IMG/VR virus record: IMGVR_UViG_2718217789_000006
DNA length: 64,000 nt
DNA from: a virus
Taxonomy: Duplodnaviria > Heunggongvirae > Uroviricota > Caudoviricetes
Strand: one strand, 5' to 3'
Shown here: positions 37,216 through 38,810 of the stretch, one piece after another
Numbering within the stretch: the stretch's first letter is position 1
Layout: the number at the start of each line of letters is the position of its first letter
Translations under genes and position numbers: made by a program
The notes under the pieces: generated by a model
The model's database searches: none
Seen by the model: the letters and a program-made list of their open reading frames with translations, nothing else
Told to the model about the DNA's origin: nothing

Positions 37216-37395
37216 ATGACATTTCTGAACCAGTTAATGCTGTACTTCTGTACGGTGGTCTGTGTGCTGTATCTCCTTTCGGGTGGGTACAGGGCCATGC
37301 GTGACTTCTGGCGCAGACAGATTGACAAAAGGGCCGCTGAGAAAATCAGCGCCAGTCAGTCAGCCGGAAGCAAACCCGAAGAGCCGCTCATTTAG
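37216..37395 (+). CDS. Hypothetical small membrane protein
   Basis: 59 aa (below ORF-track cutoff), MTFLNQLMLYFCTVVCVLYLLSGGY... hydrophobic N-terminus then basic tail. Confidence 0.3.
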   Translation: MTFLNQLMLYFCTVVCVLYLLSGGYRAMRDFWRRQIDKRAAEKISASQSAGSKPEEPLI

Positions 37396-37435
37396 CGGCA
37401 ACTTTCTTAATCACACCTTTCGACGAGAAAATCCC

Positions 37436-37681
37436 ATGTCAGAAATTACATCCCTGGTCACTGCTGAAGCAGTGAAGGAAGTCCTGCGCTCTGAAGAAGT
37501 CCGGAGCGCACTGAAACAGAAACTTCGCCATAACCTGGAAGCGCGTCTTGATGCAGAAGTGGATGCCATTCTGGATGAACTGCTGGGCGCACCGGCAGCT
37601 CCGGAGCCGGAAGGCATCGCGGGTGAGGGGAGTGCTTCAGATAGCGGTGACCCCACACCGGACAGCGACATGATGATGTAA
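37436..37681 (+). CDS. Hypothetical acidic protein upstream of holin
   Basis: 81 aa from internal ATG ([16 protein letters not shown]...); the ORF-track N-terminal extension overlaps the previous small ORF. Confidence 0.4.
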
Positions 37682-37758
37682 GCATGCGTCAGGGACCATC
37701 GGTGTGTGCCGGTGGTCTTTTTTATTGTTGTGAGCTTCCGGATTGCGGGAGGCGGGGT

Positions 37759-37974
37759 ATGAACCAGATGGAAAAAATCACAACAGGTGTGTCATACACC
37801 ACGTCAGCGGTGGGAACGGGCTACTGGTTCCTGCAGTTGCTGGACAGGGTTTCCCCGTCTCAGTGGGCGGCAATAGGCGTGCTGGGGAGTCTGCTGTTTG
37901 GTCTGCTGACGTACCTGACGAACCTGTATTTCAAAATCAGAGAGGACAGGCGTAAGGCGGCACGGGGAGAGTAA
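37759..37974 (+). CDS. Holin (phage 21/S21-type), dual-start
   Basis: [71 protein letters not shown]; two Met codons three codons apart; GGGAGG RBS. Confidence 0.8.
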
Positions 37975-37978
37975 GCTG

Positions 37979-38512
37979 ATGAGCAGGAAACTCCGCTATG
38001 GTTTATCGGCTGCCGTTCTGGCGCTGATTGCCGCAGGTGCTTCTGCGCCTGAAATCCTCGACCAGTTTCTGGATGAAAAGGAAGGTAACCACACCACGGC
38101 ATACCGTGATGGTGCGGGTATCTGGACCATCTGCCGAGGCACCATCATGGTGGATGGTAAGCCTGTGATTCCTGGCATGAAGCTGTCGAAGGAAAAATGC
38201 GACCGGGTTAACGCTATCGAACGGGATAAGGCGCTGGCATGGGTGGAGAAAAACATCAAAGTGCCGCTGACCGAACCCCAGAAAGCGGGGATCGCGTCAT
38301 TCTGTCCGTACAACATTGGTCCCGGTAAGTGTTTCCCGTCGACGTTTTACAGACGAATTAATGCAGGTGATCGAAAAGGTGCCTGCGAAGCGATTCGCTG
38401 GTGGATTAAGGACGGCGGCAGAGACTGCCGTATTCGCTCAAACAACTGCTACGGTCAGGTATCCCGTCGCGACCAGGAGAGTGCGCTGGCGTGCTGGGGA
38501 ATTGACAGATAA
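37979..38512 (+). CDS. SAR endolysin (lysozyme, T4/lambda lysozyme family)
   Basis: 177 aa; N-terminal signal-anchor-release segment (LSAAVLALIAAGASAPE), catalytic E...D...T triad region DEKEGNHTTAYRDGAGIWTICRGT. Confidence 0.85.
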   Translation: MSRKLRYGLSAAVLALIAAGASAPEILDQFLDEKEGNHTTAYRDGAGIWTICRGTIMVDGKPVIPGMKLSKEKCDRVNAIERDKALAWVEKNIKVPLTEPQKAGIASFCPYNIGPGKCFPSTFYRRINAGDRKGACEAIRWWIKDGGRDCRIRSNNCYGQVSRRDQESALACWGIDR

Positions 38513-38810
38513 GCAGAATATTTTGCTGAAAAATGCGGTTTGCTCACACGGACGGATAACACGAAATCCTGCGAACTGACAAAAACTAAGTGAATAAAAG
38601 TAAAAACCCCGTTTGTTGGCTGCAAGCGGGGTTTTGTGTTTCCTGACTCTGGAAAAGTCAAAGGAGAAAGTGTGTTTGATTTTAGCAAACTGATTCGGGA
38701 GATTCGAGTGATGGCTGAAAAATTATCCACCTGGAAGTTCATTCTTATCTGGCTGGTGTTTGTGATTATGGCCTCCGGTTATTTCATCGGTCAGATACGC
38801 TGGTGGTGAA

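Follow-up and report, generated by a model that had tools for sequence, protein, structure and literature searches.

A small membrane-protein gene between endolysin and Rz of an Escherichia coli O157:H7 prophage is a probable mobile cassette with predicted brakes on its own expression

The stretch of DNA analyzed here (the window) comprises 64,000 nucleotides of a tailed-phage record (Caudoviricetes; IMG/VR record IMGVR_UViG_2718217789_000006), and at 34.7-40.5 kb the late genes of a lambdoid prophage of Escherichia coli O157:H7 begin, with 100% identical DNA found over 2.7 kb in bovine E. coli O157:H7 genomes. Two small open reading frames (ORFs) accompany the lysis genes there on the late, Q-antiterminated transcript, ORF1 upstream of the holin gene and ORF2 between the endolysin and Rz genes; an original prediction made from the nucleotide sequence had described both as unannotated and suggested that they may encode lysis regulators or toxin-like peptides. 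In all probability both are real genes for single-pass inner-membrane proteins maintained by purifying selection. They belong to already catalogued families (DUF1378 and PHROG 6632) and are not new discoveries; what is new is that ORF2, as judged from sequence comparison, appears as a conserved, mobile and throttled cassette, joined to Rz and often skipped by annotation. The locus contains the following elements.

34708-34908, plus strand: STnc100/PasD-type RNA just 5′ of nanS-p (matched over its full length in Rfam with 148 bits; gathering score, 47)
35132-37078, plus strand: nanS-p-type sialate esterase gene
37216-37395, plus strand: ORF1 of the DUF1378 family (PF07125, phrog_494), 59 amino acids, from ATG at 37216 to TAG
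37436-37681, plus strand: DUF826 gene (PF05696, 136.6 bits), constant downstream partner of DUF1378
37759-37974, plus strand: S21-type class II holin (pinholin) gene (PF04971, E = 9e-33), dual start MNQMEK read from the sequence
37979-38512, plus strand: phage lysozyme gene, product with hydrophobic N-terminus, i.e., a signal-arrest-release type endolysin (PF00959, E = 2.3e-24)
38513-38810, plus strand: low-GC insert of 298 bp from endolysin stop to Rz start, holding the ORF2 cassette
38590-38645: bidirectional intrinsic-terminator-like hairpin (stem 38603-38635) with A-run on the 5′ and T-run on the 3′ side, from a terminator scan
38640-38668, plus strand: helix occluding the Shine-Dalgarno (SD) sequence, 38640-38643 and 38647-38650 pairing with 38661-38668
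38672-38809, plus strand: ORF2 (phrog_6632), 45 amino acids, from GTG at 38672 to TGA
38679-38687, minus strand: candidate extended -10-like box TGCTAAAAT, read from the sequence
38697-38713, plus strand: candidate second start, composed of an internal SD-like GGGAG (38697-38701) and the ATG of codon 14 (38711-38713)
38811-39278, plus strand: Rz i-spanin gene (PF03245)
39031-39216, plus strand: Rz1, embedded in Rz (PF06085)
from 39945, plus strand: terminase genes

Both ORFs thus lie where they had been placed, and the predicted translation of ORF2 was reproduced exactly. The shortness of both, the omission of ORF2 by most annotation runs and a literature search that found no translation evidence would suit the assumption that one or both are non-functional chance ORFs, yet this is very improbable, being already contradicted by the substitution pattern. 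ORF1 belongs to the Pfam family DUF1378, which it matches over all 59 of 59 positions with 134 bits (gathering cutoff 25); phrog_494 was also retrieved in the search with PHROG profiles. Of the 123 clusters retrieved by a protein search, every one derives from Escherichia or Shigella and nearly every one bears the name “DUF1378 family protein”; the exact ORF1 sequence is present on at least 1000 public contigs. For ORF2, phrog_6632 matches over positions 1-45 of 45 (E = 1.2e-29), the exact sequence again occurs on at least 1000 public contigs, and the protein is identical in 80 of 80 IMG/VR loci. The ratio of nonsynonymous to synonymous substitution (dN/dS) amounts to 0.19 for ORF1, with a proportion of synonymous differences (pS) of 0.45-0.66 against two diverged copies (61-66% amino-acid identity), and to 0.09-0.15 for ORF2 (pS 0.54-0.70 against the Salmonella and E. 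fergusonii copies). Conservation in related phages is therefore borne out for both ORFs by full-length matches to hidden Markov models and by dN/dS of 0.09-0.19 at near-saturated synonymous divergence.

A profile search of 1.84 billion representative proteins resolved the ORF2 family into 41 clusters at 50% identity, all of 32-86 amino acids and none fused to another domain. Ten full-length copies preserve both the frame and the length of 45 codons, from Escherichia, Salmonella, Citrobacter and Trabulsiella within Enterobacteriaceae to Edwardsiella, Yersinia, Izhakiella, Sodalis, Brenneria and Symbiopectobacterium in other Enterobacterales families, and the signature xD[FI]SK[LI]IRE[LI]RxMxE[KR]LxxW[KR]F, followed by a transmembrane (TM) segment and [IV][RK]WW, is kept down to about 40% identity. 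The Providencia copy has an intact 5′ end and a diverged C-terminus (50 amino acids). The Serratia copy (locus L021, about 4010-4111) begins at Met14, giving a 32-amino-acid form right after the stop of a gpV-like gene, and in the Dryocola copy (locus L023, 3983-4111) the N-terminus is replaced; the two appear from the alignment to be natural truncation variants keeping the WKF, TM and RWW core. A version of 57 amino acids starting from GTG at 38636 was rejected, the upstream frame being closed in homologues, and a second member of the ORF2 family was not found in the window.

As to the supposed lack of annotation, it does not apply to ORF1, since DUF1378 is a Pfam and NCBI family and RefSeq calls “DUF1378 family protein” (WP_000143458.1) in both records of identical DNA checked; assignment to this known family is the main correction for ORF1. 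In its full-length match, its size of 59 amino acids and its synteny in Shiga toxin (Stx) and lambdoid phages it does not differ from other entries of PF07125 and PHROG 494, i.e., it is an ordinary member of a family without assigned function. For ORF2 the statement is partially correct. Its product is 100% identical to RefSeq WP_000459345.1 (“hypothetical protein” or “phage protein”) and spans the 45-position profile end to end, and the Prokaryotic Genome Annotation Pipeline calls this protein in some genomes, precisely at the GTG start. It is called in O157:H7 strain Z869 and skipped in strain 9000, both with DNA identical to 36600-39900 of the window, and the phage records H-19B and TL-2011c do not carry its annotation. 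The PHROG 6632 catalogue entry gives no function, and no account was found of how the cassette is built (hairpin, occluded SD, GTG start) or of its mobility between late-gene contexts. Sequence searches in Pfam, NCBIfam and PDB returned no match for ORF2 and only DUF1378 for ORF1.

The hydrophobic character ascribed to both products was confirmed: the best 19-residue Kyte-Doolittle window reaches 1.98 in ORF1 (residues 3-21, thus N-terminal) and 2.13 in ORF2 (residues 24-42), and AlphaFold2 models show a single helix in each, spanning residues 2-50 of ORF1 (predicted local distance difference test, pLDDT, 77) and 4-44 of ORF2 (pLDDT 86.7). Members of the ORF1 family keep an uncharged N-terminal TM segment (F..L.LLYFCT.VCVLYL.SGGY) followed by a basic stretch, then an invariant AAEKISAS, a nearly invariant QSA and a proline-rich end; by the positive-inside rule the protein is probably oriented N-out/C-in, so that the basic tail following the TM helix would face the cytoplasm. 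ORF2 is predicted to be a tail-anchored microprotein whose amphipathic N-terminus stays in the cytoplasm, whose residues 23-42 or thereabouts span the membrane, and of which only 3-5 residues, including the terminal RWW, reach the periplasm; the most conserved part is the cytoplasmic helix and not the TM segment. Whereas an i-spanin consists of an N-terminal TM segment and a long periplasmic coiled coil and an o-spanin carries a lipoprotein signal with lipobox, ORF2 has only these 3-5 periplasmic residues and no lipobox, and the genuine Rz/Rz1 pair follows it, so it is not a spanin.

The order nanS-p esterase, DUF1378, DUF826 and S21-type holin is the same in all six loci examined, including the window, so that ORF1 always stands two genes 5′ of an S21-type holin and its association with the lysis cassette is constant. 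The most likely role of ORF1, which always travels with the S21 pinholin, would be that of an accessory membrane protein assisting the pathway of this holin. The DUF1378-DUF826 pair itself is accessory, since in prophage PP2 of strain E2348/69 nanS-p leads directly to the holin without either gene. The only literature mention found (PMC10462455) places DUF1378 and DUF826 between nanS-p and S and lists them as unknown ORFs. An ORF of 139 amino acids (37262-37681, plus strand) crosses ORF1 in a different frame and continues in that of DUF826; it is probably an annotation artefact, and phrog_8301 seems to derive from merged calls of this type.

The behavior of ORF2 is different in this respect. 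In the flank alignment of 13 copies conservation runs from the A-run before the GC-rich hairpin to exactly the ORF2 stop codon, the right end being TGGTGGTGA or TGGTGGTAG, which in the window corresponds to about 38590-38809 (about 220 bp). As read from the aligned copies, the cassette is a unit composed of the predicted bidirectional terminator hairpin, the SD-covering helix, a GTG or TTG start and 45 codons. GC content of the insert is 42.6% vs. 54.5% in both flanking genes; phage PhiR47_1, in which a related lysozyme gene and Rz overlap as usual, represents the empty site, and prophage PP2 of E2348/69 is also devoid of the insert between R and Rz. Neighbors of the cassette vary from copy to copy as follows.

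Window: S21 holin, PF00959 lysozyme and PF03245 Rz
Salmonella: HP1-type holin, lysozyme and Rz
E. fergusonii: Phage_holin_8, GH19 endolysin and DUF2514 spanin
Edwardsiella: GH108 + PG_binding_3 endolysin
Citrobacter: gene of 138 amino acids at the endolysin position, no Pfam match
Dryocola, Serratia and Yersinia: between GpV-spike-like and Baseplate_J genes
Izhakiella: 3′ of a DUF2612 gene
Sodalis: 3′ of a Peptidase_S74 tail fibre gene
Brenneria and Symbiopectobacterium: 3′ of a gene for a MuF_C/LPD38 polyvalent protein

The copies lie in late operons, and most of them run in the same direction as the late genes around them. The cassette generally ends shortly before the ribosome-binding site or the start codon of the next gene, in many copies 1-13 nt before this start codon. 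Constant association with lysis genes is thus not observed for ORF2, copies being found in baseplate, tail-fibre and polyvalent-protein contexts. These contexts, together with four endolysin families beside the cassette, point to a moron-like accessory gene rather than to a dedicated lysis gene, and on this comparative ground we regard ORF2 as likely to be a mobile accessory cassette of Enterobacterales phages and not a core lysis gene. For the same reasons, and as closely related lysis cassettes work without ORF2, the assumption that it regulates lysis seems weakened. Within E. coli the element is widespread: of 5426 complete genomes, 2027 carry the intergenic segment between R and Rz, a single genome having as many as 7 copies, and of the 80 IMG/VR loci 72 show the order lysozyme, ORF2, Rz, while DUF1378 is also present in only 10. 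In phages HK97 and HK022, morons were reportedly defined by Juhala et al. 2000 (cited in PMC4104026) as extra genes inserted between late genes. The ORF2 cassette resembles lambdoid-phage morons in presence/absence, deviant GC content, an associated terminator and location in a late-gene interval; however, classical morons possess their own promoter and a downstream terminator, whereas here the terminator lies upstream and no promoter was found.

Expression of ORF2 appears to be restrained at several levels. Across 11 genera-level copies, the hairpin is conserved with 95.8% of cells paired and AU and GC in the proportion 6:5 at one pair, a compensatory change. The T-rich tail of the hairpin (38640-38650) in turn pairs with the segment including the SD sequence AAGGAG (38661-38666), and this second helix is 86-93% paired with both-side changes in 4 of its 8 pairs (RNAalifold and pair counts), the single-sequence fold at this place giving z = -3.8. 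For both structures together 93.5% of cells are paired and both-side changes fall in 9 of 21 pairs; none of 500 shuffles reaches the observed values and sliding the partner by 1-3 columns lowers pairing to 41-60%, with the reservation that the 11 copies used in covariation and codon tests are related, so that shuffle counts and chance products overstate significance. The start codon is GTG or TTG in all 11 copies. A simple scan for consensus sigma-70 promoters detected none on the plus strand 5′ of ORF2, neither in the window nor at three homologous loci; such a scan would miss an extended -10 or non-sigma-70 promoter, so that expression in the lysogen is possible. The Rfam scan of 34-42 kb returned nothing at ORF2 except a sub-threshold rimP-leader match, which is the hairpin itself. 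Other candidates were rejected: a minus-strand promoter-like site at 38794-38765, found by scanning, is not kept in homologues; a plus-strand small RNA (sRNA) in 38513-38589 lacks a detectable promoter, the segment being partly kept in Salmonella and Providencia and absent elsewhere; a long-range fold of the whole ORF2 mRNA is unsupported (consensus -2.5 kcal/mol).

The absence of a detected sigma-70 promoter of its own, the hairpin, the buried SD and the GTG start suggest low-dose expression by read-through only: ORF2 would be translated solely from late transcripts that pass the hairpin, synthesized by Q-modified RNA polymerase, and at a low rate. The same elements bear on the idea that ORF2 and/or ORF1 are lysogenic-conversion or superinfection-exclusion membrane proteins blocking entry of DNA from incoming phages. 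The moron hallmarks of the cassette (presence/absence, deviant GC content, position between late genes) and its prevalence and strict conservation in E. coli prophages would be expected from such a protein, and HK97 gp15, a moron-encoded inner-membrane exclusion protein inside the tail operon, provides a precedent. Nevertheless, the terminator would insulate ORF2 from transcription in the prophage state, no promoter is found in the approximately 25 nt between this terminator and the SD, nor a consensus promoter further upstream, and profiles of PADLOC give no match, which makes exclusion a rather improbable function.

The 5′ part of ORF2 is constrained beyond its protein sequence. Normalized codon entropy in 11 copies is 0.28 for codons 2-15, while the middle and last thirds of the gene reach 0.68 and 0.74. 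Codons 3-5 read GAT, xxT and AGC in 11 of 11 copies, and codon 6 is AAA in all but one of them. The complementary strand accordingly reads TGCTAAnAT, an extended -10-like box kept in 11 full-length copies, which would be produced by random synonymous codons with a chance of 0.03-0.16 per lineage; its -35 region is weak (3 of 6 matches). If active, the box could drive an antisense transcript of approximately 80 nt, beginning near the ORF2 start codon, running across the SD and terminating at the hairpin, and the antisense RNA predicted for the window folds with z = -4.0. Further, codons 9-10 always read xGG-GAG, placing GGGAG 9 nt 5′ of the invariant ATG of codon 14 (chance 0.037 per lineage). 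This kept spacing and the Serratia copy, which starts precisely there, suggest a second in-frame start at Met14 that would yield a 32-amino-acid form. Extra synonymous-site constraint in codons 2-15 is thus what suggests both the antisense RNA and the Met14 start. Arg12 (38705-38707) is always encoded by the rare codon CGA in 11 copies (chance 0.06), which neither of the two ideas explains.

An antisense transcript of this kind would make ORF2 comparable with type I toxin-antitoxin loci (hok/sok, ldr/rdl, zor/orz and tisB/istR). According to this explanation ORF2 and its cis-antisense RNA form a type I-like module, in which an sRNA of about 80 nt, initiated constitutively from TGCTAAAAT (38687 to 38679) and ending at the bidirectional hairpin, would pair with the SD and start of ORF2, silence a toxic membrane peptide in lysogens and stabilize or defend the prophage. 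Likeness extends to a hydrophobic peptide of less than 60 amino acids, translation damped by occluded SD and non-AUG start, the possible antisense RNA over the translation start, the -10 box held by invariant synonymous codons, the kept A-run 5′ of the hairpin, which would supply a U-tail on the minus strand, and the good folding of the predicted antisense RNA. In this sense the “toxin-like peptide” of the original prediction would be compatible with the architecture of ORF2, i.e., upstream terminator, occluded SD, non-AUG start and possible antisense promoter. Against it, a toxin promoter was not found in the window and three homologous loci, matches were obtained neither to antitoxin RNAs of Rfam nor to type I toxin families of Pfam, the -35 region agrees at only 3 of 6 positions, the most conserved segment of ORF2 is cytoplasmic, which is unusual for pore-type toxins, and the cassette is co-oriented inside late operons instead of forming a stand-alone locus. 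We therefore consider a type I module unlikely, albeit somewhat less so than the exclusion function.

The right end of the cassette imposes a further relation to the surrounding genes. In the window the ORF2 stop lies 1 nt before the Rz start (TGAaATG), and a TGAnATG junction is found in 80 of 80 IMG/VR loci and in four other loci. As the end TGGTGGTGA supplies an SD-like GGTGG, a ribosome terminating on ORF2 would probably re-initiate on Rz; by this arrangement Rz synthesis is probably coupled to ORF2 translation, and thereby spanin expression influenced by it. It might be supposed that coupling is the main purpose, ORF2 being a leader that restores ribosome loading past the terminator for the downstream gene (Rz here) and its peptide having little function. 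Such a leader would account for the 1-nt spacing in lysis-cassette copies, the SD-like sequence in the last codons and the cassette border falling exactly at the stop codon; but strong purifying selection on amino acids (dN/dS of about 0.1), the peptide motif kept to about 40% identity and four copies that are not tightly joined to a downstream gene make it quite improbable. Directly 5′ of the cassette, a second family of small-TM ORFs (MSEKGA..AGVILAV..) was noticed in E. fergusonii (locus L008, about 2755-2905) and Dryocola (locus L023, about 3900-4000), its E. fergusonii copy ending with KWW and stop, then TGAtATG; this suggests that several small-TM cassettes share one junction design.

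Altogether, the explanation by which both ORFs are real late membrane-protein genes and ORF2 a throttled late membrane effector is the best available, and as a whole we give it an even chance. Its specific part, the late effector role of ORF2, is tentative and falls below this level. ORF2 would insert tail-first into the inner membrane (N-in), exposing the conserved cytoplasmic helix xD[FI]SKLIRELRxMxEKL as an interaction surface, and, as the lytic cycle comes to its end, would act on this membrane as a non-essential, dosage-sensitive accessory factor, holin/antiholin-like or toxin-like, that tunes membrane integrity or lysis timing without being a core lysis component. The strong damping of expression fits a membrane-acting product harmful in excess. 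Several points weigh against this effector explanation. Besides the relatedness of the copies compared and the limits of the promoter scan mentioned above, neither ORF matches holin, antiholin, spanin or toxin families in Pfam, NCBIfam and PHROG “lysis”; PADLOC defence profiles give no match at E ≤ 1 for ORF1, DUF826 or ORF2; and expression or phenotype evidence for either ORF was not found in small genes from ribosome profiling of strain Sakai, transcription start site tables of EDL933, Hfq-CRAC tables and locus-tag searches. ORF1 and ORF2 are moreover independent and do not make up one system, because so few ORF2 loci carry DUF1378. Finally, conservation centered on the cytoplasmic helix would be expected from a protein that binds a specific partner rather than from a peptide that damages membranes in a general way.

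Among known lysis proteins, ORF2 as an effector may be compared with dual-start holin/antiholin genes (lambda S105/S107 and S21 68/71), which it resembles as a small membrane protein of the lysis cassette with two candidate in-frame starts, each with an SD-like sequence. However, holin forms differ by 2-3 residues and those of ORF2 would differ by 13, and ORF2 departs from these genes in having one TM helix, no holin-family match and copies outside lysis cassettes. The most far-reaching variant assumes an undescribed and widespread three-part regulatory unit, that is, the bidirectional terminator, a cis-antisense sRNA started from codons 3-6, which would keep ORF2 silent in lysogens, and a dual-start, tail-anchored microprotein of 45 or 32 amino acids. 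Such a unit would move from one late-gene junction to another among unrelated phages of Enterobacterales, and its product would be a membrane effector gated by dose. This variant is doubtful, about as improbable as the exclusion function; if true, it would define a new type I toxin-like or antiholin-like family in approximately one third of E. coli genomes. About 37% of complete E. coli genomes carry ORF2, and classic Stx phages such as H-19B have it among their lysis genes. Since Shiga toxin is released by phage lysis, an influence of the protein on lysis timing or membrane integrity, if it exists, would affect this release. The cassette further illustrates clearly how a very small gene can spread between unrelated late operons with brakes on its own expression.

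Some other features of the region concern known sRNAs. STnc100 is a pR′-proximal RNA family and is related by a 2026 preprint to PasD, an sRNA of enteropathogenic E. coli. A weak Esr41-like match (37080-37156, minus strand; 30.9 bits vs. a gathering score of 102) lies on a bidirectional terminator 3′ of nanS-p. PasA, an Hfq-bound sRNA encoded on the minus strand of the nanS-p-holin interval in E2348/69, was considered and rejected, the equivalent position of the window aligning unconvincingly, and AgvB/AsxR do not provide a link either, being located elsewhere, 3′ of a moron coding sequence beside pR′. Between DUF826 and the holin start, within the late operon, a strong terminator-like hairpin with T-run occupies 37691-37730 (plus strand). 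On the other side of the lysis genes, 3′ of Rz, an ORF of 74 amino acids (39302-39526, plus strand) matches only positions 100-172 of the 291-position phrog_2571 and looks like a truncated gene remnant.

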